A DNA stretch of 38,480 nt from a virus. The stretch lies in IMG/VR virus record IMGVR_UViG_3300042923_000626; one strand, 5' to 3'. Positions 557 through 38,480 of this stretch are shown one piece after another. Position numbers and translations under genes: made by a program. The notes below the pieces were generated by a model, which was given only the letters and a program-made list of their open reading frames with translations, did not search any database and was not told the DNA's origin. Each line of letters starts with the position of its first letter. Position 1 is the first letter of the stretch.

Positions 557-2401
557 TTAAATAACTGACATATAAGCTTCATACATTCGCTCTAGTTGTA
601 CATAAGCATCTAACAATGAAGCTAGTCCGTCAATACGCCTACGTGGATTGCTTGTCTTTATAGGCTGTATATTATCATTCTTATCAATGTCTATTGCAGT
701 ATTAGTTAAACACCATTTAAGAATTGGATTATTATTATAATTAATTATGTTATTCTCTAAATCAGCGCCTAGATTTTTCATAGGTCCGCTTAAAGTTTTC
801 TTTCCTTGAATAACTTGTTGCCATGTATCTTTGCCAAATGTATTATGCATTTCTTCTACCCAATAAGCAGCACTCCACGCATCATATCCACCCGAGTATA
901 TATAAATATCATAAGTATTTTGAATCTCTAAAAACCACTCGGTAACATACTTATAATGTACCTTGTTTCCTGGTGTAGTTCTTAATAATCCCATATCTCT
1001 CCATAAGTCATATGGGATTTTGTCTTCTTGTACTCTTTTTTCAAGTAGATCTTCAGGCAAAAAGTACATTTGCATAGCAAATATTTCTTCTTTTCCTGGA
1101 ACTTTGAATATAATAGTTGCACATGTTAAGTCAGTAGTACTAGACAAATCCGCACCACCTATACCATAACGTGGCTTTAGTTCCTCTAGAGTATAAATAG
1201 CAGTATTATTAGCCTGTTCAAAAGTCAACCATGCTTCAGCGCTTGTTTCTCTTATATTAAAATCTTTGCATAATAGATTTTTAACTAATAATGGATTAGC
1301 TTTAGCCTTATTTACTTTAGTAATTAATTGATCTATCTTTTTAATAGTTCCTAAACCTGGATTAGCTTTTATAAAGCAATCTTCATCCATCCACTCATTT
1401 CTATTATCTAATTCATACACTATAGGCAAGAATGACTCGTCTTTATATCCATTTTCATCATCATAGCCATTTATAACTCTTTCAGCTTCATCATATTTAA
1501 TGTCATATACACATTCTCTTACTGTTCCAGCTGTTGTTGTTATAAATATCAATGGTTCTTCTCTTGCTGTTGTACCATCTACAATAACGTCATATAGGTT
1601 CTTGTCCTGCCATGCATGTATTTCATCCAATAATGCACAATGTACATTTAAACCATCTAAACTATCACTATCACGCCCTAAAGGCCTAAAAAAAGAATCG
1701 TTAAAATCTGCTGTCAACTCCCCAACTAAAGTTTTAATTCTTTTCTTGAGAGTTTTCGACTTATTAACCATTCTCTTTGATTCTAACCATATTATTTTTG
1801 CTTGATCTTTCTTGGTAGCACATGCATAAATCTCGGCTCCTGGTTCACCATCCGCAACCTGCATATATAATCCTATAGCGGCAGCTAGTGTTGACTTACC
1901 GTTCTTTCTAGCAACTACAAGTAAAACTTCTTTATGCTTTCTGAGTCCAGTTATCTTATGAACTATACCAAATGTTGCAGCTACTAAAGCCTTTTGCCAT
2001 AACTCTAATATAAATGGCTTACCGCCCATCTTGCCTTTAGAGTGTTTACAATAGTTTTCTACAAATTCAATAGCATGATTTGCTTTATGATTATCATATT
2101 CCCACTCACTTGTAGGATCATTAATTATTCTTATTAGTTCTTTATATACTTTATAAACTTTATAACTTGTATTAATTGCACCAGTAGTAGCCTTTATCTC
2201 ATTAAGTTCTTTTGTAAGTTCTGCTAATTCATTTTCTTTAGCCTTAAGTTTAACTTCGTCAAGTTCTTTTTTGATGATGAATATTTCTTTCTTTAAATTT
2301 TCTACTTTTTGAAATAGTGGCTTATATTTTATTTTTTCCCAGTATTCTTCTACAGGATTATAAGCCAAGTCATAAATTATTTTTCTTACTGCTTTACTCA
2401 T
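557..2401 (-). CDS. terL: Terminase large subunit
   Basis: 614 aa. Terminase_1-like ATPase (GGKPFILELWQK, LLVVARKNGKST Walker A-like) plus a C-terminal nuclease region. Start overlaps the terS stop by 4 nt. Confidence 0.9.
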   Translation of the reverse strand: MSKAVRKIIYDLAYNPVEEYWEKIKYKPLFQKVENLKKEIFIIKKELDEVKLKAKENELAELTKELNEIKATTGAINTSYKVYKVYKELIRIINDPTSEWEYDNHKANHAIEFVENYCKHSKGKMGGKPFILELWQKALVAATFGIVHKITGLRKHKEVLLVVARKNGKSTLAAAIGLYMQVADGEPGAEIYACATKKDQAKIIWLESKRMVNKSKTLKKRIKTLVGELTADFNDSFFRPLGRDSDSLDGLNVHCALLDEIHAWQDKNLYDVIVDGTTAREEPLIFITTTAGTVRECVYDIKYDEAERVINGYDDENGYKDESFLPIVYELDNRNEWMDEDCFIKANPGLGTIKKIDQLITKVNKAKANPLLVKNLLCKDFNIRETSAEAWLTFEQANNTAIYTLEELKPRYGIGGADLSSTTDLTCATIIFKVPGKEEIFAMQMYFLPEDLLEKRVQEDKIPYDLWRDMGLLRTTPGNKVHYKYVTEWFLEIQNTYDIYIYSGGYDAWSAAYWVEEMHNTFGKDTWQQVIQGKKTLSGPMKNLGADLENNIINYNNNPILKWCLTNTAIDIDKNDNIQPIKTSNPRRRIDGLASLLDAYVQLERMYEAYMSVI

Positions 2402-3861: not shown

Positions 3862-4317
3862 TTAAGGGAATATTGATTCAATAAGACTATTAATTATTTT
3901 GTTCCTTAATTGCTGGCAGTAATCTTTATTGAAGCTTAATTCCATACCTATCTCAATCCAACTCTTTTTATATTTGCTTAAGTATCTCATTTCAACCAGC
4001 TTGTACTCATTCTCTTTTAAATCCTTTAGAGCATTATATATTTTAGTTCTCAATGCCATCTTATCAGCCTTTAGAGACTTAAGTCTTGCTATCTCCTGTT
4101 CCATATAAATAGATCTGTGAATTACTTCATCTTCAACGTTGCTATGAAATGCATTAGTTGGACTTCCTTTATCCTCGTAACTAACCGCCTTTAGAGTAAT
4201 ATCATTCCTTAAGTGTTCTATGTCTATATCTATGTTATTAATAGCTGTATCAAGTTTCCTATAATCATATAATGTCTTTTCCATCTTTTTAAATTTATCT
4301 TCCAAGTTTATCACCAC
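3862..4317 (-). CDS. RinA/ArpU-family late transcriptional activator (sigma-70 region-4-like)
   Basis: 151 aa. N-terminal LYDYRKLDTAINN and C-terminal MRYLSKYKKSWIEIGMELSF helix-turn-helix. It is the last gene before the packaging module. Confidence 0.6.
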   Translation of the reverse strand: MVINLEDKFKKMEKTLYDYRKLDTAINNIDIDIEHLRNDITLKAVSYEDKGSPTNAFHSNVEDEVIHRSIYMEQEIARLKSLKADKMALRTKIYNALKDLKENEYKLVEMRYLSKYKKSWIEIGMELSFNKDYCQQLRNKIINSLIESIFP

Positions 4318-4322
4318 CTAGG

Positions 4323-4706
4323 CTATTTTAATAATTCTGGATTCTCATAAATGTTTCCTATAACTTTATCACCAAATCTTTTTGATTTTGTATCACCTAT
4401 ATCGTTATATAGAGTCTCTATATATGATTCACCTCTATAATTTCTTTTAACCTTTAAACAATATTTCCACGAATTATCTTTCCAGATTACATATCTTACA
4501 TATCCATCATAAGATTCAGTTATATCACCCTCATAAATTGCATTATCATTCTTATCTTTTAAGCCTGTATATTGCATCAAATAAAAATCTTCTATATTCT
4601 CCCACTCAGCATTGTAAATATGCAGTGTATTTTCACCTAAAAAATCTACTGATTCCATTTTAATATTTTCTTTATCCCATGCTCTAAATTTAATTACTCT
4701 ACTCAT
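4323..4706 (-). CDS. YopX family protein
   Basis: 127 aa with IKFRAWDK...LMQYTGLKDKNDNAIYEGDI...GNIYENPELL, the typical YopX signature. Confidence 0.8.
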   Translation of the reverse strand: MSRVIKFRAWDKENIKMESVDFLGENTLHIYNAEWENIEDFYLMQYTGLKDKNDNAIYEGDITESYDGYVRYVIWKDNSWKYCLKVKRNYRGESYIETLYNDIGDTKSKRFGDKVIGNIYENPELLK

Positions 4707-4893
4707 TTATTACACCTCTCTTGATTTCAAACTCTTTAATTTCCTTAATAAGCTTTTTCTTTTCTGCCTGTAGTGGAATAATAATCTTGTCTTGATTCAC
4801 CTTAGATATCTTTTTGATTCTATATGCACTTCTTAGTTGCTTATCTACTTCTTTTAATCTATCTTTTTTAACTTCTAACATATCAATTGACAT
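4699..4893 (-). CDS. Hypothetical protein (64 aa, lysine-rich coiled coil)
   Basis: ORF overlaps the YopX start by 8 nt. RBS GAGGTGAA lies upstream. Confidence 0.5.
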   Translation of the reverse strand: MSIDMLEVKKDRLKEVDKQLRSAYRIKKISKVNQDKIIIPLQAEKKKLIKEIKEFEIKRGVINE

Positions 4894-4914
4894 ATAAATT
4901 CACCTCATTTTTAA

Positions 4915-5325
4915 TCTCAGAACAAAAAATAACAAGTTTATAACAAGAAAATAACAAGTTTTTTAACTTTTTGTTATCCCTGTAACCGTTGATATAACTA
5001 ACCTGTAGGGTTCTCATAACAAAATAACAAGAATTTTTAAAATATACACCCTATCTTTATATATAAGGATGTATATACCTTTTCTCATCTATAGTATATA
5101 TATATTTATATTTTTTGTTATTTATATAATATATATATATAAGGATGGCTTAACCATGCGGTATGAGGCACATAACAAAACCGAAAAAATTCTTGTTATA
5201 TCCAGTTTTTAACATCACCTTCAAAGCTTTGGTACCACTGGCCTAGAGTACATAACAAAAAATATTTGATTTTTGTTATTTTTTTGTTATTTTCTTGTTA
5301 TGGCTCTATAGGTTGGACTACTTCA
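4915..5325. repeat. Iteron/AT-rich element, copy A (inverted homolog of 20845..21232); candidate replication origin
   Basis: 13 exact ATAACAA/TTGTTAT heptamers. Outer triplets are phased at 11 bp (4929, 4940, 4951 and 5273, 5284, 5295). ATAACAA-N14-TTGTTAT pairs start at 5172 and 5252. A central (TA)n tract runs about 5060-5140. Confidence 0.8.
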
Positions 5326-5350
5326 AATTTTAGTATTGCGAACTATTATC

Positions 5351-5764
5351 TTATTCTTTTACTATGTTATTTTCTTTCATTTTTTCACCTATTACTTTAA
5401 GTGCATATTCAAATCCTTCTTTGAATCCCTGTAAATACTTTCTATCTGTTCTACAAGTATTTCTTTTATATTTTTCTATTTCTTTCTTTGTTAATAAATT
5501 TTTTATTTCCATTGATATTACTCCTTCACCATTTAAACATGCATCCGTTTTAGAATCTTGAACTACATCAAAACATTCCTCTAACCAATTAAAGACCATT
5601 TTTAAGCTATATGAACTGTACCCTATATGGCATTCTCCATCATCAATGGGATAATATTTAATCTCGTAATATGGTTTTTTCATATTCCCATGAACAACTA
5701 TCTCTGCACTTGTTACTTTGATTTTCTCAATTTCATTATTTTCTTCAGATTTAAAATCTTTCAT
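5351..5764 (-). CDS. Hypothetical protein
   Basis: 137-aa ORF co-oriented with the early operon. No motif recognised. Confidence 0.55.
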   Translation of the reverse strand: MKDFKSEENNEIEKIKVTSAEIVVHGNMKKPYYEIKYYPIDDGECHIGYSSYSLKMVFNWLEECFDVVQDSKTDACLNGEGVISMEIKNLLTKKEIEKYKRNTCRTDRKYLQGFKEGFEYALKVIGEKMKENNIVKE

Positions 5765-5853
5765 TTTTACAACACCTTTCTTTCATATCATCTACATCTT
5801 ACATATTAAATTTCATCCTTAAATTTAGAATATTTTATAGCATTTTCCCAACA

Positions 5854-6048
5854 TTACTTGCAATCATCATCCAATTCACAGTGTTTAATATAAGGACAAT
5901 CTATTTCAGTATCATCTTTTGTATTAATTAATACAAAACACTCTTCATCAGAATCTGTTAAATCTAAAACTTTAAATTTTTCATTAAATTCGCTTCTTGT
6001 GTTTTCTTTTACCAATTTTTCAAATGATTTATTAATCAAAGTTATCAC
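5854..6048 (-). CDS. Hypothetical protein (64 aa, acidic, Cys-containing)
   Basis: Co-oriented ORF. No motif recognised. Confidence 0.45.
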   Translation of the reverse strand: MITLINKSFEKLVKENTRSEFNEKFKVLDLTDSDEECFVLINTKDDTEIDCPYIKHCELDDDCK

Positions 6049-6372: not shown

Positions 6373-8970
6373 TTATTTAGCAACACTAAATATATTCCGT
6401 TCAGCCATGTTAACAGCTTCTTCCATTAGGTCGCATTCAACTATTTCACCAACTCCAAGTTCTATAAGTTTGTCTGTATTGAATTCATCATACCAAGGCT
6501 TGGAACCAGTATCTTTATCAGTAAACTGTTTTTCATTAACCTTTAAAAGATATCCACTTTTCTTAGCTTGCTTTCTGAAATCTTTAATCTTGACCATGTT
6601 AATATCAACAGATTGATAATCACGCTGATACTTAAATAATGTATCTACCAATATTTGTGATCTTATAAATGTCCTCTTTTTTTCTGTTCTTACAGCTTTA
6701 AATGCACTTACATAATTACTGTCCTGTAGAATATCATTAAACAATGTTATCATCTGTTCTATGGTACTGTCCGTATCGTCTCCGTTGCTCAAAACTTCAT
6801 CACGTATGTTTTGTTCAATAGCACTTTCATACTCTTCTACAGGCTGTAACCCCTGTTTAATTAGCACCTTATTAAGCAATTCAATTCCGCAACTTATGTT
6901 AATTGCTGTGTTAAGCGGTCTATCCTTTAGAGTGAATTTATTTCTCAAGCCGATTCTAAGCTGCTTATATTCCTCTATAGGCAAGTTTAAGACTTCTAAT
7001 ATAAGGCTTTTACCTAACTTATTTAACAATTCTCTATGATCTTCTAACCAAAATATTGAGTTGCTAGTTTCTTTGGTTCTTTCACCTTTTCCCATGTAAA
7101 CTATGCAGCTTCTAGTAATAATTGCTTTTTCATTACCTGGTATCATTTCTTCACCTGCAACTATCATTGGTCTTGTTAACTTTACATCTTTAACGCCAAA
7201 ACCTTTATCACCTCTAGATATTGCGTCTCTATCATATGCAGATCTAAAAATATTACTTAATTCATCTTTCTTATACTGAGTCATTTTACTAGGTTTGAAT
7301 TCTTCATATACTATTGGATAATTTCCGACTGCTAATTCTTCTTTAATAGAATGGATTGTACTTGACATTGTTTTTTTATCGCATTTAGGATAATTAAGAA
7401 GTGGCATTAATACTTTTTCTAATATAGTAGTTTTACCTGTTTGGCTTTCACCAAGTAAGAATAAATGATGTAATTGTGAATCTAATCCTATGCTTTGTGC
7501 TACTTCTAAAAAGCTTAATGCACTACCTATAAGGCAAACTGCTTGATTGTAATTTATGAATCTGAATAGATGTTGCATAAGCTCCTGAAGCTCATTTTTC
7601 TCTATAGGCTCTATATCTAATATGTCAATGTTGCTATTTTCAGCTACACAACTTCTATCCATGGCGCCCGGTGTCAATGTGCCTGTAGATGTAATGATTT
7701 TAAATTGTTCAGTACCTTCTATAGGCAATATTTTAGTTCCGACATTTATCTCACTATTATCTACTGCAAAATACTTATTAACCCAACCTTTGAGCTTTAC
7801 TAATTCACCTACATTTATACCAGTAAAGCTAAAGTCCATGCCCAGGAAGTTTCTAAAGGTCCTGAGATCATCAAAAATCTTACTTGGTCCAATCTTTTCA
7901 ACTATCTTTCCATCTATACAGCTTTTAATCTTAAGCTTTATATTTTGTGTTCCTTCATCAACTCGATTTATCTTACTTGCCTCTAGAATATTAAAATCAG
8001 TTAAACGCTCTTTTTTAAATGAATCTTCTTCGTCTTTACTTTTCTTTAAGTAATAAATTCCTTCATTGTCCTGCTGTAGTTCATATTTATTCTTAAGGTC
8101 CAGTGATCTATCAAATGATTTTATTAACTCTTCTTTTGTATGTCCAGCCTGCAACCAATCCGTAACGTCAGCACCTTTTCCCATAGATTTAATACCGGGT
8201 AAATTTACTACTTTAAACATTGAAGCGCATTTTATAAAATTCTTTTTAATGTTTTCCAAATATTCAATTCCTGTTTTATCATTGTCTGGAATCACTAATA
8301 TTTTCATGAATTCAGCCTGTATTTTAGCGTAATCCTTAAAACATTTTATTGAAGTTGCTACATAATCTTTTTTGCTTAAGGTGTTATTTATCGTATTAAC
8401 ATCTTTTTCGCCCTCTAGGAAGACAATAGTTTTATTCTGTGCTATTCCTTGCAATAGATTGTAATAATTGTATGGCACTTCATCATGTAGCCTTTTATTA
8501 AAGACTTGTCCATCCTGTAGAGAATAATAAGGTGTTTCTTTCTTGCCATCAGGCTTCAAAAACTTAACTTTTGCATATATAGGATTGTTATTTTCATCTA
8601 CAAATACAAACACTCCTAAAGGCTTGTATCCTTGCTTATTTCCGCTCTTAACTTGCTTAGATACATAATCTTCTATTGCACTTTTAAACTCTTCTAAAGG
8701 CGTTCTAGTGACTTCCATGCCTAGATATTCTCTAGCTTCTTTATGGCTTAGATTTTTATATTCCATAATAAAGTCCACACAATCTCCGTATTTACCACTA
8801 TCACTAAAATCTTTGAATTGCCATTTGTTCTTATTACTATTGAAAAATACACTAAAAGAAGGTGTCTTTTCATTGGTAAATGGTGAGCATATTTTATTGT
8901 CCTTATTAAATCTCTGTCCTGTCTCAGCCTCTATAACTGCCTTTAGGTCTATATCTTGTATTTCTTTCAA
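6373..8970 (-). CDS. Bifunctional DNA primase/helicase (zinc-finger-like N-terminus, Toprim, P-loop NTPase)
   Basis: 865 aa. N-terminal CSPFTNEKTPSF resembles the DnaG CHC2 finger. Toprim-like FLEGEKDV...PDNDKTG. Walker A LLGESQTGKTT in the C-terminal half. Confidence 0.8.
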   Translation of the reverse strand: MKEIQDIDLKAVIEAETGQRFNKDNKICSPFTNEKTPSFSVFFNSNKNKWQFKDFSDSGKYGDCVDFIMEYKNLSHKEAREYLGMEVTRTPLEEFKSAIEDYVSKQVKSGNKQGYKPLGVFVFVDENNNPIYAKVKFLKPDGKKETPYYSLQDGQVFNKRLHDEVPYNYYNLLQGIAQNKTIVFLEGEKDVNTINNTLSKKDYVATSIKCFKDYAKIQAEFMKILVIPDNDKTGIEYLENIKKNFIKCASMFKVVNLPGIKSMGKGADVTDWLQAGHTKEELIKSFDRSLDLKNKYELQQDNEGIYYLKKSKDEEDSFKKERLTDFNILEASKINRVDEGTQNIKLKIKSCIDGKIVEKIGPSKIFDDLRTFRNFLGMDFSFTGINVGELVKLKGWVNKYFAVDNSEINVGTKILPIEGTEQFKIITSTGTLTPGAMDRSCVAENSNIDILDIEPIEKNELQELMQHLFRFINYNQAVCLIGSALSFLEVAQSIGLDSQLHHLFLLGESQTGKTTILEKVLMPLLNYPKCDKKTMSSTIHSIKEELAVGNYPIVYEEFKPSKMTQYKKDELSNIFRSAYDRDAISRGDKGFGVKDVKLTRPMIVAGEEMIPGNEKAIITRSCIVYMGKGERTKETSNSIFWLEDHRELLNKLGKSLILEVLNLPIEEYKQLRIGLRNKFTLKDRPLNTAINISCGIELLNKVLIKQGLQPVEEYESAIEQNIRDEVLSNGDDTDSTIEQMITLFNDILQDSNYVSAFKAVRTEKKRTFIRSQILVDTLFKYQRDYQSVDINMVKIKDFRKQAKKSGYLLKVNEKQFTDKDTGSKPWYDEFNTDKLIELGVGEIVECDLMEEAVNMAERNIFSVAK

Positions 8971-8984
8971 ACTCTTGCACCTCC

Positions 8985-9275
8985 TTATACTTTAAATCCG
9001 TTCCAAATTTCATCTTCTGTCATATTCCTATAGAGTAAAGTTTCAATATCATGCTTAGTCTGGCTTAAATCTGCCACTAACCCATCAAATTCAGTTCTAG
9101 CATTTATATACATTGGATTACCTTTTCCATCATCTTTGGTCTTATATGTGCCATCTTTATTTTTTAAAGGAGTTTCATATTCTAGCCAAGTATGTGTTTT
9201 AAGGTAAGTTTCAGCCTTACTATTTCTAACTAGCAAGGCATTATATTTCTTTTTTAGCTCTATTAAACTTTCCAT
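8985..9275 (-). CDS. Hypothetical protein
   Basis: 96-aa co-oriented ORF. Confidence 0.5.
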   Translation of the reverse strand: MESLIELKKKYNALLVRNSKAETYLKTHTWLEYETPLKNKDGTYKTKDDGKGNPMYINARTEFDGLVADLSQTKHDIETLLYRNMTEDEIWNGFKV

Positions 9276-11830: not shown

Positions 11831-12196
11831 CTATATTTCTGCAAATGCTAATGATACATTATCAAAAATTACTTTCTTAGTTTTATCTGTAACTAAGTTT
11901 TGATTTTCACATGAAGCACCTGCTATTACTTGCTCACTTTGGCAATAACATTGTTTATTTAAAAGGCATCTTTGATTTAAACAACTCTTATCTTTTATTA
12001 ATTCACTATCATCTTTAGTTAGTTCTACTGGATCAGCAATTCCAAAATAATCTGCAAGTTTCTTCAATCTATCATTTGATGTATTATAGTGCTTATTTTC
12101 AACATTACGAATTGTAAGTTCTCCAACACCAGTTTCCTTTTCTAATTGCCTATAGGTTAGACCTCTTTCAAGTCTAAGCTTTCTTAATAAAATCAT
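11831..12196 (-). CDS. XRE-family HTH protein with Cys-rich C-terminus
   Basis: 121 aa with an HTH_3-like LRLERGLTYRQLEKETGVGELTIRNVE. Confidence 0.65.
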   Translation of the reverse strand: MILLRKLRLERGLTYRQLEKETGVGELTIRNVENKHYNTSNDRLKKLADYFGIADPVELTKDDSELIKDKSCLNQRCLLNKQCYCQSEQVIAGASCENQNLVTDKTKKVIFDNVSLAFAEI

Positions 12197-18795: not shown

Positions 18796-19431
18796 GTGGT
18801 TAATTTGTTAGGTGGTAAAATAAAAGAATTAAGAGAAAAGTTAAATTTAACTCAACAAGATTTGGCTGATAAATTGAACATAGGTCAATCAACTATAGGG
18901 ATGATTGAAAGCGATAAAAGAATACCAGGAAGAAAAACTTTGACTAAACTAGCAACTTTCTTTGGAGTTTCTTTAGATTACTTATTAAAAGATGAAAATG
19001 TTGAAGAAGATTTTGAAACTATAGATATAAGTACTCAATTTGTACCTATTCCAATAGTAGGAGAAATAAGAGCAGGAGAGTTAATACTCGCAGAGGAGAA
19101 TTTACAAGGATATATGCCAGTACTTAGGAACTCTTTGAAATTAGACGGAGAGTATTTTGCTCTTAAGGTTAAAGGAGATTCTATGAATTTAGAATTTAAT
19201 GAAGGTTCTATTTTAATAATAGAAAAAACTTGTTGTATAGAAAATGGTCAAATTGGAGTTGTCAGAGTTGATGGAATTGAAGCAACTGTAAAGAAAATTG
19301 TTATTAACAATGGAATGATAACTTTAATACCAATGTCTACAAATCCTGTACATATTCCAAGAATGTATAACATTCGCAATGATGACGTTGAAGTAATTGG
19401 GATAGTAAAACAAGCAATAAAGAGTTATTAA
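18796..19431 (+). CDS. CI-type repressor (XRE HTH plus S24 LexA-like autopeptidase)
   Basis: 211 aa with HTH LNLTQQDLADKLNIGQSTIGMIE and S24 motifs KVKGDSM and ATVKKI. The true start may be the in-frame TTG at 18805. Confidence 0.9.
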   Translation: MVNLLGGKIKELREKLNLTQQDLADKLNIGQSTIGMIESDKRIPGRKTLTKLATFFGVSLDYLLKDENVEEDFETIDISTQFVPIPIVGEIRAGELILAEENLQGYMPVLRNSLKLDGEYFALKVKGDSMNLEFNEGSILIIEKTCCIENGQIGVVRVDGIEATVKKIVINNGMITLIPMSTNPVHIPRMYNIRNDDVEVIGIVKQAIKSY

Positions 19432-19442
19432 GGAGGATTGAA

Positions 19443-20525
19443 ATGGATTTTAATATTACCTATAGGAAAAAAGATGGTGGACTTCAAGCAATCATTTCTT
19501 ATAAAGATTCTACAGGCAAGTGGAAACAAAAAAGTAAGCAAGGGTTTGAAGATAACAAGAAAGGCGAAAAGGCTGCAGCTAACTGGGCAAATGATGCCAT
19601 AACAGAACTTAAAAATAGTTCTACAATTATTAGACAGCATAAGGATATAACGCTAATAGAGTTCTATAGGCTTTTTATATCTGACAGAGTAAATACATTA
19701 AGAGCTTCTACATTAAAAGGATATGAGGACGCAATAAAGCATTTTGAAGCATTGTATAATGTAAATCTTAAAGATATCAATACTATGGATATTCAAAGAG
19801 AAGTAAATAAACTTAATAATCTTAGTTCTGAATCTATTTCAGCATACCTGAAAAAAATTAAATGTATTTTTAATTTTGCTGCAAACAAATATGAAATAAT
19901 ATCTAAAAGTCCCGTTAAAAATATAGAATATACAGGTACAAAACCACAAGAAAAAACAGCGTTAAATAATAAAGAACTTGAAAAATTATTAATTGATTTA
20001 AAATCACTTAGGACCTATAGACCTTTTATAGCTTCTCTTTTAGCTGCTAAATGTGGTTTACGCATAGGAGAATTTTGTGGACTTACATGGAAAGATATAG
20101 ATTTTGTAAATAATAATATAGATATAAATAAGCAATGGATAAAAGACAAGCAAGGTATATGGGGTTTTGGAAAACTAAAGTCTAATAATTCCTATAGAAT
20201 TGTTCCTATGCCACCAATAGTTCGTAAAGAGTTGTTAAAATTAAAAGAAACAATGCCTTTAAATATTGATACTAGAATATTGCACGTAAAAAATACTACT
20301 GCTTTTAGTAGTGATCTAATTATAAGATATAAAAAATTTGGATTTAATATAAGTGTTCATGAATTAAGACATACTTATGCAACTAATTTAATTTCTAATG
20401 GTATAGACTTTAAAACTGCTGCAAAATTATTAGGTCATGATATTAAAGAAACTATGAAAACTTATAGTCATGTTAATGATGACATGCTTAAGAATGCTAA
20501 AAATATTATAGAAAAAATTTTTTAA
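19443..20525 (+). CDS. int: Tyrosine integrase
   Basis: 360 aa with catalytic-region motifs GLRIGEF, HELRHTYATNL and LGHDIKETMKTYSHV. AGGAGG RBS. Confidence 0.9.
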   Translation: MDFNITYRKKDGGLQAIISYKDSTGKWKQKSKQGFEDNKKGEKAAANWANDAITELKNSSTIIRQHKDITLIEFYRLFISDRVNTLRASTLKGYEDAIKHFEALYNVNLKDINTMDIQREVNKLNNLSSESISAYLKKIKCIFNFAANKYEIISKSPVKNIEYTGTKPQEKTALNNKELEKLLIDLKSLRTYRPFIASLLAAKCGLRIGEFCGLTWKDIDFVNNNIDINKQWIKDKQGIWGFGKLKSNNSYRIVPMPPIVRKELLKLKETMPLNIDTRILHVKNTTAFSSDLIIRYKKFGFNISVHELRHTYATNLISNGIDFKTAAKLLGHDIKETMKTYSHVNDDMLKNAKNIIEKIF

Positions 20526-20531
20526 TTCAAA

Positions 20532-20748
20532 TTTTTGACGTTTTTTTGACGTTTAAGAAAAGCATGGCTTTAAATAGGCCTTTAGGTACAATATTATAGT
20601 TTTCTGGATGAAAAATTTATTCTTATCAACGCCAAAGATAAAATACGATATAACTATTCAAACTACTGATATTATAGTTTTCTAAAAGATAATATTATCT
20701 ATGAGCGATTTATTATTTTTATAAAATTTTTTTGACGACTTTTTGACG
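20532..20748. repeat. Probable attP arm region: four direct TTTTTGACG sites and two ATATTATAGTTTTCT 15-mers
   Basis: TTTTTGACG at 20532, 20543, 20729 and 20740, in pairs phased by 11 bp. The 15-mer is at 20591 and 20669. Directly downstream of int. Confidence 0.5.
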
Positions 20749-20844
20749 GCAAAAATAATATTGCCTATAGAAGATAAAAATATCTATTTTATAATTAAAA
20801 TAAATTATAAAGATATAAAATTAGTTAATCAATAACTCATCACA

Positions 20845-21232
20845 GAAAAATAACAAAAAAATAACAAAAATGAAAAAATTCTTGTTATGGCCTTTAGAGT
20901 AGTAATATCAAGGGTTTGAGCCTAATGGTAAAAAATAGATATAACAAAAATAAAATCAGTTTTGTTATCTCGCTATCCATTGGTATCACTAGCCTTAGCC
21001 TATATATATAATATATATAACAATAATTTTATAAAATATATATATATAGATGAGAAATAATATATATACTCATATAAAGATAGGGGGTATATTATTTATT
21101 TTTTTGTTATTTTGTTATTTTTTCTCTAAAGGCTTGATATCACTGGGATGGGAGCATAACAAAAGTTCTAAAAAGCTGTTATATTGTTGTTATATTGTTG
21201 TTATTTTCTTGTTATTTCTTGTGAAATGCTGA
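20845..21232. repeat. Iteron/AT-rich element, copy B (inverted homolog of 4915..5325)
   Basis: 12 exact ATAACAA/TTGTTAT heptamers in the same order and spacing as the reverse complement of copy A. It shares a 25-nt identical block (aaaataacaaaaaaataacaaaaat) and the blocks tatagatgagaaa and ataaagataggg. Confidence 0.8.
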
Positions 21233-21649
21233 TTTGAAGCTAAAATGAGGATGAAAGATAAGATTTATTTTACTCTATAGGCAATATTGTTTAAATCTAA
21301 AGTCGGATATTCCTACTATAGGAAATATTATTACCATAAATGAGAAGTACCAAGGGTCATTCCAAAATGGAGTTACCTTTAAGTCGTTTATTTTACTGGA
21401 TTGCTCCAAAACGGTGCTACCCAAGTTGGCGAAAGATGATTTTATTAACTCCTATAGGCAATATTATAAACGGGTCGTGAAATGCGAGGGGTATCGGTGA
21501 AATGCCTCCCCCATTTTATAATAGCAAATTAGACTATTTAAGGCACTTACATTTCAAGTCGATAAAGTTATCATTAAAAGTGTTTTAAAAGCTATATGAA
21601 AGCGATAAGGCTATTCTATAAGCATCTATAGGTATAAATTAATTAATGG

Positions 21650-21681
21650 CATAAAAATAAAGCTAGGAAATTAATCCTAGC
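21650..21681 (-). terminator. Terminator of the late/lysis operon
   Basis: Minus strand GCTAGGA-ttaatt-TCCTAGC followed by TTTATTTTT, 30 nt after the endolysin stop. Confidence 0.65.
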
Positions 21682-21710
21682 CTTTTACACTCTTGCATAT
21701 TAAATTATAT

Positions 21711-22478
21711 TTATTGTTCTATTGAATAAAACCAGCTGCCTAAAGTTTCCTTTAGTTTATTACATTGCTCTATAGGCATATATCCTGTTTCTATCCATAC
21801 ACCCTTATCATTGCCTCTCACGTACGTTTTAACGCCTTGGAAATAACCAAGAATATAATTTATGTCTACGCCATCATAACCTTCATATGCGGTCGGTAGA
21901 TAGGCTGTAACTACATAACCTTGGCCTGTAGAGTTAGAAATGTTTTCTATAGGCTCTTTAGATATACTTTCATCAATGGCATTACACAAAACATGTGCTA
22001 ATTTCTCCCAAGAATACTGATTATAAATGTCTATATCCTCTTGAGAGTCGCAAAAACATATTTCACTTATTATATTGCCACAATTTATATGATTCATTTC
22101 ATAGAGCTTTTCGAATTTAACACCTCTACAGGCGAATCCTAATTCAGCATAATTGTTAAGCAATCTTTGTGCGTATTGATAAGCCGAACTATTTTCACTA
22201 CTTACAAGCACCTCGGTTCCATGTGCTGAACCATTATAGCAATTCATGTGCAAACTTATAAATAAATCACAATTAGCTGAATTTGCTTTATTAGCGCCCT
22301 CTGAAAGTTCTGCATTTTCTGTATTTGCATTAGAATTGCAATCAATAACAGTATGCCCATATTGTTCAAGTACTGCTTTTACTGCTGCGTAATACTTTTT
22401 CATTTGCTCATGCTCATTTACTATTCCTACAGCGCCCTCGCAATTATCGCTGTGCCCTGCTCTTAATCCTATTATCAT
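21711..22478 (-). CDS. Endolysin, N-acetylmuramoyl-L-alanine amidase (Amidase_3) with C-terminal binding domain
   Basis: 255 aa with GLRAGHS...FISLHMN motifs. Overlaps the holin stop. Confidence 0.85.
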   Translation of the reverse strand: MIIGLRAGHSDNCEGAVGIVNEHEQMKKYYAAVKAVLEQYGHTVIDCNSNANTENAELSEGANKANSANCDLFISLHMNCYNGSAHGTEVLVSSENSSAYQYAQRLLNNYAELGFACRGVKFEKLYEMNHINCGNIISEICFCDSQEDIDIYNQYSWEKLAHVLCNAIDESISKEPIENISNSTGQGYVVTAYLPTAYEGYDGVDINYILGYFQGVKTYVRGNDKGVWIETGYMPIEQCNKLKETLGSWFYSIEQ

Positions 22479-24236: not shown

Positions 24237-27200
24237 TTATTTAAATATAATTTTTATTATATTATCATTAACTCTTGAAATTACCCTATAAGTATCCATT
24301 CCTTTTTCACTTGTTATTGCTATACCGCTAGAATTTACAGAACAATATCCATTAACTTGGCAACTTCCATCGTCTCTAACCGCTAATACTCCCAACATAC
24401 CTACTGTGTCCCATTCAGGACGATTAGCTCTTTGGATATATTCTTTTGTTTGGTCATAATTAGCACTTAATTTTAATCTACCATTTTTAATTATACTCCC
24501 TGTTTTAACTAATGTTACTTCTCTTGTTTCTTCATTAATTTGCTCAATTTCCTCTTCAACATCTTCATATATAAAACGGCCGAAATCGTCATGTGCATAT
24601 TTTCCGAGCCAGTCCTCGTCACTATTTCCAATTATACATGGATTAGCTGATACAACGCCAAGTATATAATCTCCTGTTGTGGCTATTTTAATTTTGTCAC
24701 CATCTGTTGTTACGAAATAACCACATCTATCTTCTTTATTTATATTTTCATCAGACCATTCGAAAAATTCAGCATAATCGGCACCAGTGGCATTATACGC
24801 TTGTGTACCATAAACACCGCCACCATAATTAACTCTAAATCCATTTGATAATGCACTACTACTTGTCCCGTTACCAATAACAAAAGCGTCACCGATCTGA
24901 TTGTTTGAAGCGCCCCCCGTTAATAATGGTTTGTTATATTTACCCATTACCATACATGCATAATTATTAGCAGTTGTAGAATCACCCATAGCTGTAGAAG
25001 CACGCTCTGTTGCTTGCGTAGATTTATTTTGTGCATGTGACCATAAATTTGTAGCTTTACTTCCGCTTCCTTCTGAATGTGCACCTTCTTCTCCAGCAAA
25101 GGTATTAACGCCACTTGCACATGAAGCGTAACCAGTTGATAAATTATTTGCACCTTCAGCAAATGCTGCATTTGGGTTAAAATTACTAGGTCTATATAAT
25201 AAATATTTAGCACCAGTATATACTGGCTTATTTAATGTAACAGTTAAATAAGTGGTATCAATAGCTGTAATTTCAGCATATACAATTGCATTCCAATCAT
25301 GCTTTATAATTACGTTGTTTCCGACTGCTAACCCACTAACTGAGCCTAAAGTGATTATGTTACTTCCATTTGTATAAGTCTTAATTCCATAAACATTAGA
25401 AGAATAGGCAAGATTCATATTACCAAACGCAGTAGAATTAATTCCTGCATAATTATACTTAGTGCTTCCAAAAACTCCTCCACCATCAGGTGTTTTTACT
25501 AAAGCATTATTATATGAATAAAGTACATCACCATTATCATTTATAGTCTTTTTATTATATTCTTTTATCACACTATCTAAATCTATTAAAGACGAATCTA
25601 TTGCAACAATTTGTGGGGTTTGAGTTAAATCAAAGTTTATCCCTCTATTCGTTATTGTATGCTCGTCATTTCTTGTCCAATATACACATATGACGCTATT
25701 ATCTGCTTTCTTAAAATATACAAAATAATCAGCTGAGCGAGGTTGTTCGTGAAATAAAAGTTCACTTCCATTTCCTAAACTTGATAAAAAGTTTTTAATC
25801 ATAGTTGCAGATGTAGTAGGACTATAATCTGCATTAAACAAGCTAAACCAATACTCACTATCTGTATTATTACTCTGAGGTGAATATAATTCATGTATGC
25901 TTTGTGTAGAAATTCCATTTATTAAATTTGCCATAAAACTTCTCAAAAAATATTGTCCTCTTTGTGTGTCTGATAATGAAGGTAACGGAGGCATACTTAA
26001 ATTATCCCAGTTTGATGGTATTGGGTATCCAAATTCCGTTATGGCTATTTCCATATCCTTATTATTAAAAGTCCCTATTAAACCTTTGTAAGTATTATAA
26101 ATAATCCCTAACATTTCAGGTTCTTGTACACTATAAGGATGAATTGAAAGAGCATCCATATAATTTAGTCCACCTAAAACACAAAAATTTATAAAAAAGT
26201 CTGAAACTCTATATTGATATCCGTTTTCTGGTCTGTATGACTCCGCTAAACAACATCCATATACCTTATGATTACTATTTATAGCTTTAATTGCGTTGTA
26301 AGTATCTTTAATTAGTAGGTAATAATAATTTGATGCATTAGCTTGGTCATTCCAAAAATACTCCAAATTTGGTTCGTTCCATACTTCCCAAGAAACATTA
26401 TAATTTTTATATTTATTAACTGTTGCTTTTACATAATTTATAAATGCTGCTCGAGCAGTATCTGTTACTATATGACTTCCTGTGCTATAAATAGAATTAT
26501 CTCTTCCTAATGTTATAATAGGTCTTATCCCATTGTTTATTAATTCCATTATTGTACTATCGTAATATGAAAAATCATATGCACCACTAACAGTTTCAAC
26601 TTTACTCCATAAGACTTCTAGTCTAAAGCTTGTTATTCCATAAGTTTTTAAATTAGCAACTCCAATATTATCAATTACACTTGGGTTTCTTCCGCCTAAA
26701 CTTACTCCTACATCTAAACTTTTATTATTATGGATAATATTTGACAAACCAGCGTTGATATCAGCCAGTTTATTAGATATGTCCGTAACGTCTGCGTGTT
26801 CCTGTTCAAAAGTCTCCAATGAATTTAAAAGACTATCTCCTGTAGATATGGTTCCTTCTAAATCATCTTTTAGAGTATTACCTGTAGATATATCATTTTC
26901 TAAATTAGTTTTTAGAGTATTACCTATAGAAAAGGTATTGTCTAAGTTGACTTTTAATGTATTTCCAGCAGAAATGCTACCATCTAAATTATTTTTAGCA
27001 GTCTCACTATTGCTAATAGTAGTTTCTAAATTAGTGTTAGCTTCAATAGCTTCACCTATATGTTCAAAAAAGTCACTTAGCTGATCTAATTTCTTCTCTA
27101 ATTCCTCTAATAATGTATAAGTTGCTTTGCTTATACTTGCCTCTATAGCAATTGCACTTGCAACAACAACTAATACTAAGTTGAATGTGGCTTTCTTCTC

Positions 27201-27503
27201 ACCTGTAGACTTATCTATAAATTGTAACTCTACAGGCGTATTACCTGCGGTAGTTGTTAATTGTTCATCAGCTTGAATATTAACTACATTGCCATCAATA
27301 TCTATACCTATATGTTGTTGTATAAGTGGAACATTATCAGCTTTCATTGCTCTAAGCCTTACATCATAATTAGTTAAATCTGCCTGTAGACTATTATCAA
27401 AAATACTTAAGATTAAATTTAAATTATCAAACTGCTTACACGTTGCATATATATTCAAATTTTGTTTAAGGTCTAAACTTGCTGTTAAATCTTGTATTGC
27501 CAT
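24237..27503 (-). CDS. Receptor-binding protein/tail fibre: BppU-N-like anchor, 14-aa repeats, clan GH-A glycosidase-like domain, head repeats, phi29 gp12-type C-terminal chaperone domain
   Basis: 1088 aa. N-terminal DLKQNLNIYATCKQFDNLNL. WEVWNEPN and ITEFGYP catalytic-Glu motifs. C-terminal GADYAEFFEW...EDRCGYFV...ILGVVS...DDFGR resembles Peptidase_G2. Confidence 0.75.
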   Translation of the reverse strand: MAIQDLTASLDLKQNLNIYATCKQFDNLNLILSIFDNSLQADLTNYDVRLRAMKADNVPLIQQHIGIDIDGNVVNIQADEQLTTTAGNTPVELQFIDKSTGEKKATFNLVLVVVASAIAIEASISKATYTLLEELEKKLDQLSDFFEHIGEAIEANTNLETTISNSETAKNNLDGSISAGNTLKVNLDNTFSIGNTLKTNLENDISTGNTLKDDLEGTISTGDSLLNSLETFEQEHADVTDISNKLADINAGLSNIIHNNKSLDVGVSLGGRNPSVIDNIGVANLKTYGITSFRLEVLWSKVETVSGAYDFSYYDSTIMELINNGIRPIITLGRDNSIYSTGSHIVTDTARAAFINYVKATVNKYKNYNVSWEVWNEPNLEYFWNDQANASNYYYLLIKDTYNAIKAINSNHKVYGCCLAESYRPENGYQYRVSDFFINFCVLGGLNYMDALSIHPYSVQEPEMLGIIYNTYKGLIGTFNNKDMEIAITEFGYPIPSNWDNLSMPPLPSLSDTQRGQYFLRSFMANLINGISTQSIHELYSPQSNNTDSEYWFSLFNADYSPTTSATMIKNFLSSLGNGSELLFHEQPRSADYFVYFKKADNSVICVYWTRNDEHTITNRGINFDLTQTPQIVAIDSSLIDLDSVIKEYNKKTINDNGDVLYSYNNALVKTPDGGGVFGSTKYNYAGINSTAFGNMNLAYSSNVYGIKTYTNGSNIITLGSVSGLAVGNNVIIKHDWNAIVYAEITAIDTTYLTVTLNKPVYTGAKYLLYRPSNFNPNAAFAEGANNLSTGYASCASGVNTFAGEEGAHSEGSGSKATNLWSHAQNKSTQATERASTAMGDSTTANNYACMVMGKYNKPLLTGGASNNQIGDAFVIGNGTSSSALSNGFRVNYGGGVYGTQAYNATGADYAEFFEWSDENINKEDRCGYFVTTDGDKIKIATTGDYILGVVSANPCIIGNSDEDWLGKYAHDDFGRFIYEDVEEEIEQINEETREVTLVKTGSIIKNGRLKLSANYDQTKEYIQRANRPEWDTVGMLGVLAVRDDGSCQVNGYCSVNSSGIAITSEKGMDTYRVISRVNDNIIKIIFK
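26814..26999. repeat. Tandem 42-bp (14-aa) repeats inside the receptor-binding protein gene
   Basis: Four to five units of the form LKxNLxxxISxGNT: AKNNLDGSISAGNT, LKVNLDNTFSIGNT, LKTNLENDISTGNT, LKDDLEGTISTGDS. Confidence 0.7.
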
Positions 27504-37681: not shown

Positions 37682-38480
37682 TCATTCACCCCCTTTCAGC
37701 TTATCAAGGATTTTGTTATATAGCTTTTCTTCAATTTCATTTACTACAGCAGTATCTAACCGTCTTATAACTTTATCTCCACCTTCTACAGGCGGTAAAT
37801 TAAGAACTTCTCTCCATTCATTAGGCGTTAATGCGCCTCTATCTACCATTTGTAATAAGTTCAATTTAGTAGCCATACTAGCATATTGAAGATTATTAGC
37901 AGCATAAATAATTTGATTTCCAAAACCTCTTTCACGCCTATTAAATAGCTTTCTCGTATCTTCAGCACTCCATTGTAACGCTATAGGCTCAATCTCACTC
38001 TCATAATATGCGTTCCATTCATCTTCGCTGTATTTGCTTTGTACTATCTTTTCGTTAGTATTAAAAAAGCTGTATATTCTCTGTGTGGTTCTGTCAATAA
38101 CTGACGCATTGGGAACATAATCTTTAGGTTCTATTTGCTGTGCATCTACTTTATTATCAATTCCAGCTGCTCCACCTGTATTTTCAATATTCAAGAATGT
38201 TTCTGTGAATAAATCTGTTTGTTTTTTTATGTCCTCAGGTCTAACATTTCCAAGATATTTTAATAGCCATCTAATTACACCACTATTTTTAATAGCCTTA
38301 ACTATTCCTTGATCTGTTGTCGTAACAATATTCATCAAAGGTAATAATGATTCCCTTGGGCTTTCTCCAAAAATATCATTTTCATTAATATCCTGTCTTA
38401 AATGAATAATATCAGTGTAAGGATATGTAACAATAACTCCATTACGATTAGTAAATCTTAGGAATAAATCGCCTGTAGAG
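37682..38480 (-). CDS. Portal protein, HK97 family, C-terminal part (continues at 128..525 of the circle)
   Basis: The frame stays open upstream of the track ORF to the window edge. Removing the overlap gives a joined length of 398 aa. Confidence 0.85.
   Translation of the reverse strand, partial: STGDLFLRFTNRNGVIVTYPYTDIIHLRQDINENDIFGESPRESLLPLMNIVTTTDQGIVKAIKNSGVIRWLLKYLGNVRPEDIKKQTDLFTETFLNIENTGGAAGIDNKVDAQQIEPKDYVPNASVIDRTTQRIYSFFNTNEKIVQSKYSEDEWNAYYESEIEPIALQWSAEDTRKLFNRRERGFGNQIIYAANNLQYASMATKLNLLQMVDRGALTPNEWREVLNLPPVEGGDKVIRRLDTAVVNEIEEKLYNKILDKLKGGE
38354..38480. repeat. Terminal direct repeat, identical to 1..127
   Basis: Read directly from the sequence. Confidence 0.95.

Follow-up and report, generated by a model that had tools for sequence, protein, structure and literature searches.

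In the 38,480-nucleotide stretch of viral DNA recorded as IMG/VR IMGVR_UViG_3300042923_000626 (the whole of which we call the window), a repeat-bearing, AT-rich element occupies positions 4915–5325. This element, hereafter copy A, is probably an iteron origin of the type described for the Staphylococcus aureus pathogenicity islands (SaPIs), predicted from its sequence to bind the phage's own fused primase and Rep-like helicase and to start replication there. An earlier note on this DNA, made from its letters, had proposed a SaPI-type origin served by a primase-helicase, and the proposal gains support from the fold of that protein, the SaPI-like layout of the repeats, the meltability of the core, and the covariation of the repeat word with the C-terminal domain of the protein. 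The parts of copy A are listed here, with those lacking a strand marked as unstranded:

4915–5325, unstranded: copy A, candidate origin, with 13 heptamers around an AT-rich core
4929–4977, unstranded: left iteron array, ATAACAA three times at 4929, 4940, and 4951 (11-bp steps), with an inverted TTGTTAT at 4971
5016–5030, plus strand: heptamer doublet ATAACAAAATAACAA, with heptamers at 5016 and 5024 (8-bp step)
5041–5140, unstranded: AT-rich (TA)n core, a candidate DNA unwinding element, with one TTGTTAT at 5115 (minus strand)
5172–5199, unstranded: inverted pair ATAACAA-N14-TTGTTAT, its half-sites 21 bp apart on the same helix face
5252–5301, unstranded: second inverted pair and right array, ATAACAA at 5252 and TTGTTAT three times at 5273, 5284, and 5295 (11-bp steps)

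Copy A lies in a 457-bp gap between open reading frames (ORFs) in the minus-strand operon (4894–5350), the same gap that the earlier note had described, and its left edge adjoins the ribosome-binding site (RBS) of ORF 4699–4893 on the minus strand. Between 4929 and 5301 it holds 13 exact ATAACAA or TTGTTAT heptamers where ~0.2 would be expected per 411 bp, so that the count and expectation given earlier agree with ours. The expectation came from dinucleotide shuffles of the whole window, which yielded 19.2 ± 4.6 matches on both strands of the 38,480 bp. Because the window contained 45 heptamers (13 in copy A, 12 in a second element that we call copy B, and 20 elsewhere), the excess over the shuffled sequences is due entirely to the two elements. 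Six of the copy A heptamers are on the left, six are on the right in opposed orientation, and one is within the core; the steps between them (11, 11, 20, 45, 8, 91, 57, 21, 59, 21, 11, and 11 bp) form a spacing that is conserved in mirror image, and the 11- and 21-bp steps place the words on a single face of the helix. The two phased triplets and the inverted pairs starting at 5172 and 5252 had been reported at exactly these positions, and the (TA)n-rich tract reported at about 5060–5140 is likewise seen in the sequence; to these we add a third inverted pair, 4951/4971, with an N13 spacer. The flanks of the core, CCCTATCTTTATAT and TTTCTCATCTATA, are conserved, and the doublet ATAACAAAATAACAA is near-invariant in five aligned copies, with one substitution, in L018A.

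The second element is found between the integrase/attP region and the endolysin gene:

20838–21232, unstranded: copy B, the inverted and diverged sister of copy A, with 12 heptamers (20850–21215) in mirror-image spacing
21001–21100, unstranded: AT-rich core of copy B

Copies A and B are reverse complements of each other, with inverted arms that are 74–76% complementary without gaps and a mean column identity of 82% in the gapped alignment. Of the heptamer columns, 87 of 91 were identical between A and B, compared with 170 of 305 other columns (Fisher p = 1e-14). The same contrast held in comparisons between phages; over the comparisons between copies and between relatives, heptamer columns were 90–96% identical and spacers as little as 56%. 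Ten of the 13 heptamers were preserved without change at matching positions in each of the five aligned copies. As read from these alignments, the pattern is that of protein-binding DNA words and not that of a coding or RNA-structure constraint. The ORFs of A and B are short, of low complexity, and different from each other, consistent with the earlier statement that the two copies share no conserved ORF. When nearest-neighbour energies were used to rank 40-, 60-, and 100-bp duplex windows across the genome, the core of B was the least stable and the core of A the second least stable, with both (~21001–21100 and ~5041–5140) lying about 4.5 standard deviations from the mean. Each copy therefore has a candidate unwinding element between opposed iterons. 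Because B has every feature of A and shows the same selection, it appears to be a functional site for the same protein.

Copy B shares with A the words and the layout of repeats plus an AT-rich region, as the two sites of a dual origin of the phage SPP1 type would. It may be a second firing origin, for which we would put the chances somewhat below even; a comparable chance falls, taken together, on its being an initiator-bound fork barrier like oriR of SPP1, which would switch replication from theta forms to concatemers, or a regulatory or handcuffing site. Its inverted orientation relative to A would avoid deletion by recombination between the copies. Copy B is flanked, in the gap between the integrase and lysin genes, by repeats of ~27–30 nucleotides that contain CTATAGGCAATATT (20757–20783, 21265–21292, and 21438–21467), one of which is inverted relative to the other two, and the same gap includes a 460-bp non-coding stretch at 21240–21700.

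Relatives of the two elements were collected from IMG/VR, metagenomes, and Clostridium genomes by pattern scans and protein-anchored look-ups. Neither the region nor the element matched any deposited phage or plasmid by megablast or blastn, and tblastn of the primase-helicase against deposited phages returned remote Toprim matches only. A first viral pattern (a 23-mer) produced only chance matches and the pattern scan of the genome collection produced two chance matches without clusters, while the metagenome scan produced one real copy, L107; outside this phage clade, no copy of the element was present in the viral, metagenome, or genome collections scanned. Within the clade, the primase-helicase gene is followed by an A-type copy made of ATAACAA in L016, L018/L101, L103, L112, L113 (a chromosomal prophage of C. 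beijerinckii), L114 (C. saccharobutylicum, with the element 3.8 kb downstream), and L255, and B-type copies are present in L013 (on the same contig as L018), L102, and L107. In a clustering of the copies, the A and B types formed separate orthologous groups of 8 and 4 contigs, respectively, implying that the duplication is old and that both copies have been kept without gene conversion. In the two other contigs that have both, A and B again carry one and the same word, and they were also inverted with respect to each other, assuming that the pattern-derived loci are stored in contig orientation.

The proposed partner of these repeats is encoded upstream of copy A along the minus strand, together with a smaller protein that also came under consideration:

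6373–8970, minus strand: fused primase/initiator helicase of 865 amino acids, with a DnaG-type primase at residues ~1–300, a Rep/Cch-type helicase at ~300–739, and a C-terminal domain
6376–6753, minus strand: C-terminal domain, residues 740–865, the proposed iteron reader, which sorts by repeat word
8985–9275, minus strand: helical protein of 96 amino acids, its gene upstream of that for the primase-helicase; a second, weaker candidate partner

Searches of Pfam with the 865-amino-acid protein recovered only a zinc ribbon of the DnaG type, to which PHROG and tblastn matches added a Toprim/primase region at residues ~100–330; an invariant Walker A motif occupies residues 507–515. Similarity to SaPI Rep was undetectable at the level of sequence. 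For an AlphaFold2 model built from 24 homologues (mean pLDDT 83.5), the best Foldseek matches in the PDB were Cch of the staphylococcal cassette SCCmec (5dgk, E 5e-14) and SaPIbov1 Rep (8tch, E 1e-13, TM 0.66 on the target over ~580 aligned columns), both spanning roughly residues 300–865. The N terminus matched the DnaG proteins of Aquifex and Bacillus, and weaker matches included the Rep proteins of SaPI1 and SaPI5 and poxvirus D5/E5. These fold matches, together with the Walker A motif, identify the protein as a fusion of a DnaG-type primase with an initiator helicase of the Rep type. When the C-terminal domain was modelled alone (pLDDT 80.6), its best Foldseek match was TcpK-oriT at E 0.046, and its list of matches, none of them significant, was dominated by winged-helix DNA binders (TcpK-oriT, MarR, Fur, ORC/Cdc6, and RTP), which hints at a winged helix in this domain.

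In the window and in the relatives P0005, P0018, P0022, P0025, P0045, P0097, and P0109, the primase-helicase gene is a mosaic of three modules that recombine independently among Clostridium prophages. L114 encodes the C-terminal domain on its own, as an ORF of 131 amino acids starting at residue 740, which marks this residue as a natural module boundary. The surroundings of the gene and the origin are also a hotspot for insertions (L016 ~5300–6000, L018 ~5330–6000, L017 8691–9548, and L114 14245–15600), with inserts that encode ThyX, an HNH/NUMOD4-type endonuclease, a PAPS-reductase-like PP-loop protein, or a DNA methylase.

Evidence on which protein reads the repeats came from more distant relatives of the primase-helicase, in which a gap of ~420 bp is found at the same place, its end again marked by the RBS of the small ORF that precedes the DUF722 gene. 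The elements in these gaps share the design of copy A (a set of direct words at one end and of inverted words at the other, with a (TA)n core and units of a word, N14, and the inverted word between them) but are written in different words: (T)GTAACAA in the C. botulinum-type prophages L118, L120, L245, L248, L249, L252, and L254, and TGCACAA in L122. The unit of a word, N14, and its inverse is thus also made with GTAACAA in other clades. We compared these words with an identity matrix of eight primase-helicase proteins of known word and found that only residues 740–865 sorted by word, with identities of 0.64–0.79 and 0.97–0.98 within words and 0.35–0.46 between them. The primase and helicase parts did not sort in this way; the helicase part of the window protein, for example, was 47% identical to that of P0022, which has the same word, and 68% identical to that of P0025, which has a different one. 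P0025 was 63% identical overall, like P0022, but only 40% identical in the C-terminal domain, from which we predicted blind that its prophage would have a different word, and the prophage indeed has GTAACAA.

Because the C-terminal domain and copy A are neighbours, we ran controls for linkage. The downstream small ORF and the DUF722, DUF5651, and ERCC4 proteins did not sort by word, and the DUF722 protein of L114 was 89% identical to that of a GTAACAA phage and 40% identical to that of the window. A case free of linkage was provided by a GTAACAA-type contig that contains the A-type L245 and a distant second copy, L157, which adjoins regulator genes; the two were 70.6% identical, and L157 is also made of GTAACAA. 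L157 grouped with the A copies of its own clade at 65%, partly because of the shared word. Taken as covariation, these results point to residues 740–865 as the seat of iteron specificity.

In the mechanism that we propose, the C-terminal domains of a hexameric primase-helicase would bind the ATAACAA words on both sides of the (TA)n core, this binding would melt the core, the helicase would load itself onto the melted core, and the fused DnaG-type primase domain would then prime synthesis. Copy B would be a second site for the same protein, inverted and placed at the far end of the late operon beside attP. An extended form of this proposal, to which we would give only a small chance, is that A and B are a programmed pair in which A fires and the fork is arrested or redirected by initiator bound at B, or in which both load opposed helicases, and that the scattered motif GCCTDTAG(AG) is a cis-acting code for the replisome, marking, for example, priming or loading sites of the fused primase. 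Such a pair function, if true, is not described for Rep-type initiators. The ERCC4-type nuclease and AAA_24 proteins that are also encoded in the window could serve recombination-dependent restart.

Several observations weigh against copy A as an origin read by this protein. The cumulative GC and AT skews carry no origin signal, tracking the direction of transcription only. The C-terminal domain had no significant structural match in the PDB. Nor does the element adjoin the gene: it is 1.05 kb downstream in the window, where the earlier figure of about 1 kb from the gene's end at 6373 was right, and relatives range from ~50 bp to 3.8 kb, the largest distance being that in L114. In L017/L250, a relative at 60–70%, the 2.3 kb available downstream contained no element. 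The 96-amino-acid protein also sorts roughly by word, so that the reader may be this protein or a complex, although its margin vanished when more relatives were included and neither a family match nor a DNA-binding signature was found for it. Finally, copy A is directly upstream of a small ORF and a late-regulator gene, and a transcriptional role is therefore possible.

The last two points are the core of an alternative in which the heptamers form an operator or regulatory array for the small ORF and the late-regulator genes, bound by a transcription or looping factor (the 96-amino-acid protein, for example, or a different early protein), with B as a partner for looping or insulation at the other end of the late operon. 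Such an array would explain why A ends exactly at the RBS of the small ORF before the DUF722/phrog_36 regulator in every clade, why A and B bracket the late operon, and why the 96-amino-acid protein roughly follows the repeat word. Yet B precedes no conserved gene, scans for promoters and terminators at A and B did no better than on shuffled sequences, and the array gives no role to the extreme meltability of the cores or to a SaPI-origin layout beside a Rep-like helicase. The fading of the 96-amino-acid signal with more relatives, and the lack of a DNA-binding signature in that protein, count against it as well. A 121-amino-acid helix-turn-helix protein of the replication module (11831–12196), which we had considered as the heptamer binder, was ruled out by its absence from L118–L124, clades that retain the element. 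We regard an operator array as unlikely. Partition sites for a ParR- or ParB-type adaptor, serving an episomal prophage, are far less probable still. The two dispersed copies would suit them, and short repeats at 11-bp steps resemble type II centromeres such as parC of R1; the relatives, however, are chromosomal prophages at tRNA-Leu, indicating that the phage integrates, a partition ATPase was absent from the part of the gene set that was annotated, and partition would explain neither the AT-rich core nor the covariation of a Rep-like protein.

We give scarcely any credence to the two remaining explanations. One is that B is part of attP, bearing arm sites for the integrase, and that A is a stray duplicate. 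B lies in the gap between the integrase and lysin genes, which is the classical place for attP, the integrase of the window (19443–20525) has an arm-binding domain, and B-type copies are always near an integrase. The same heptamer, however, accompanies four types of integrase, some of them without an arm domain, A-type copies are far from any integrase, and the word follows the C-terminal domain of the primase-helicase. The location of attP points the same way. An integrated copy of the window's own phage was not found, only the circular form, and attP was mapped instead in an L013-type relative. Phages of this type integrate in the 3′ end of tRNA-Leu(GAG), downstream of polA-coaE, in Clostridium sp., with attP and attB sharing a ~55-bp identity segment (L115 9813–9896; L013 ~4758–4812), and the junction in the L115 prophage, which is close to L013, puts attP between int and B, ~190 bp outside B, such that integration leaves B intact. 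A better candidate for arm sites is TTTTTGACG, which occurs four times in the window, as 11-bp direct pairs at 20532–20551 and 20729–20748, and nowhere else in it (0.15 expected). These pairs are 197 bp apart directly downstream of the integrase gene and, to judge from their placement, are likely integrase arm-type sites that flank the attP core; attP would then lie outside copy B, in the order int, attP, B, lysin. The other explanation makes the element a mobile one, resembling a miniature inverted-repeat transposable element with terminal inverted repeat arrays, or else the gene for a structured non-coding RNA. Opposed arrays at the ends and two copies per genome would fit the former, and a word, N14, and the inverted word could form hairpins. 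Against mobility are the syntenic positions, the separate orthologous lineages of A and B, and the confinement of the copies to the phage clade in the collections scanned, with none in annotated phages or plasmids; against an RNA are the empty scans with Rfam (gathering threshold) and, for tRNAs, ARAGORN, and the joint change of direct and inverted words from one clade to another, a coupling that base pairing in hairpins would not call for.

An origin read by the primase-helicase, the explanation that we favor, has to be placed in the context of the whole phage. Positions 1–127 of the window are identical to positions 38354–38480, and this exact 127-nucleotide terminal direct repeat means that the window is a circular assembly of a genome of ~38,353 bp. 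It is a temperate Clostridium phage, circular and of ~38.35 kb, with a G+C content of 31%. All genes are on the minus strand except those for a CI-like repressor (18796–19431) and the tyrosine integrase. In minus-strand order, the main features are:

18558 to 5351, minus strand: early and replication genes, including that of the 865-amino-acid primase-helicase, upstream of copy A
after copy A, minus strand: a 64-amino-acid ORF, then YopX
3862–4317, minus strand: late regulator of the phrog_36/DUF722 type
between the late regulator and the large terminase, minus strand: HNH gene
557–2401, minus strand: large terminase (TerL)
past the terminase and around the circle, minus strand: structural genes, then endolysin at 21711–22478

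The endolysin gene is followed by copy B and then by the integrase region. The late operon is thereby bracketed by the two copies, which are 15.5 kb apart across the early/lysogeny arc. With TerL, an endolysin, and a full-length late region, the window is not a satellite; SaPIs and other phage-inducible islands are recognized by having no virion genes. The phage replicates, on our reading, like a SaPI replicon but is no SaPI itself. Within an ORF of 1088 amino acids (24237–27503), which is probably a tail fibre, four tandem repeats of 42 nucleotides (14 codons) at 26830–26997 are 67–71% identical.

The motif GCCTDTAG (extended, GCCTDTAGAG) occurs 82 times in the 38.35 kb, or about once per 470 bp, with 37 copies on the plus strand and 45 on the minus strand (for example at 118, 547, 6975, 7719, 20763, 21275, 21452, and 29303). 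D stands for A, T, or G, with C at that position just twice, and the individual 8-mers are 60–90 times above expectation. Most copies are intragenic and fall in five of the six classes of frame and orientation, the sixth being the one that would create an in-frame TAG. They are densest near copy B (10 copies in 20578–21947), and the origin elements themselves hold degenerate copies at conserved places. Their density is 1–2.4 per kb in this phage clade and 0.3–0.5 per kb in the GTAACAA clade, whereas low-GC phages that are unrelated have ~0 per kb and 9.8 kb of host DNA contained none. We looked for a strand switch of the GCCTNTAG motif at A and B and found none, and the motif therefore provides no signal of replication direction.

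An origin next to a primase-helicase gene would not surprise a specialist, but the covariation series and the paired copies make good experiments possible. Copy A and its partner offer a concrete, testable origin and initiator for widespread and unstudied Clostridium prophages (in C. beijerinckii, C. saccharobutylicum, C. botulinum, and C. butyricum), with potential use in building replicons and in understanding prophage induction in solvent-producing and toxigenic clostridia. They would extend the self-loading Rep helicases of the SaPI and SCCmec type to complete phages, with fusion to a DnaG-type primase. The words ATAACAA, GTAACAA, and TGCACAA, each paired with a version of a swappable domain of ~125 residues, form a natural series for studying how initiators read DNA. 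The conserved, inverted second copy would provide another, independent instance of the oriL/oriR arrangement known from SPP1, and could help to test the fork-arrest model of the switch from theta to sigma replication.

The closest parallel for the initiator and the layout of copy A is found in the SaPIs. SaPI Rep is a self-loading helicase with a C-terminal winged helix that recognizes iterons of 5–6 nucleotides (Qiao et al., 2022, PMC9371898), and the SaPI origin, which lies downstream of rep, is built of 6–12 iterons around an AT-rich centre, no fewer than two of them on each side and in opposed orientation; in SaPI5, pri and rep are fused (PMC9371898). The window resembles these systems (SaPIbov1 Rep, 8tch; SaPI5 PriRep) in having a Rep-fold initiator helicase with a fused primase and a C-terminal domain proposed to read the iterons, and copy A resembles their origin in its AT-rich centre, its opposed iterons on each side, and its position downstream of the gene. 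It differs in that the host replicon is a complete temperate phage instead of a satellite, the words are of 7–8 bp and number 12–13, including N14 inverted pairs, the primase is of the DnaG type (zinc ribbon plus Toprim), small genes spanning ~0.05–3.8 kb lie between the gene and the origin, and there is a second, inverted copy.

For the second copy, the closest precedent, by analogy, is SPP1. On its circular genome, ~13 kb separate oriL from oriR, one in the replication region and the other intergenic among late genes, and each has repeats and an AT-rich unwinding element bound by one initiator; oriL fires, and the proposed effect of initiator bound at oriR is a stalled fork that sets off recombination-dependent concatemer synthesis (PMC6316719; PMC3485210). 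A and B are likewise two similar sites, 15.5 kb apart. However, SPP1 uses gp38 with the loader gp39 and the DnaB-type helicase gp40, in contrast to the Rep/Cch-type helicase fused to a primase in the window, whose helicase part matched Rep/Cch/MCM-like and SF3 proteins and not DnaB, with no search aimed at gp38 homology. In addition, oriL is inside gene 38, whereas both sites here are intergenic, full-length homologues, and inverted.

Cch of SCCmec (5dgk) is the top-ranking structure for the helicase part and, like SaPIbov1 Rep, a member of the MCM-like group, but unlike the window protein it is not fused to a DnaG-type primase, and it is not known to have a cognate iteron origin. The alpha protein of satellite phage P4 combines primase, helicase, and a C-terminal origin-binding domain in one polypeptide, and it binds both ori and crr, which lie apart from each other and are clusters of one iteron; crr, which is required in cis for replication from ori, has the repeats but no complete origin copy, and the primase and helicase of alpha are of other families. 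The kind of system described here is thus already known, both as an iteron origin whose self-loading initiator is of the Rep type and, in SPP1, as a dual origin. What is new is its occurrence in complete temperate Clostridium phages, the fusion of a DnaG primase to Rep, words of 7–8 bp with N14 pairs, a natural series of three words whose specificity goes with a swappable domain, and a conserved, inverted second copy.

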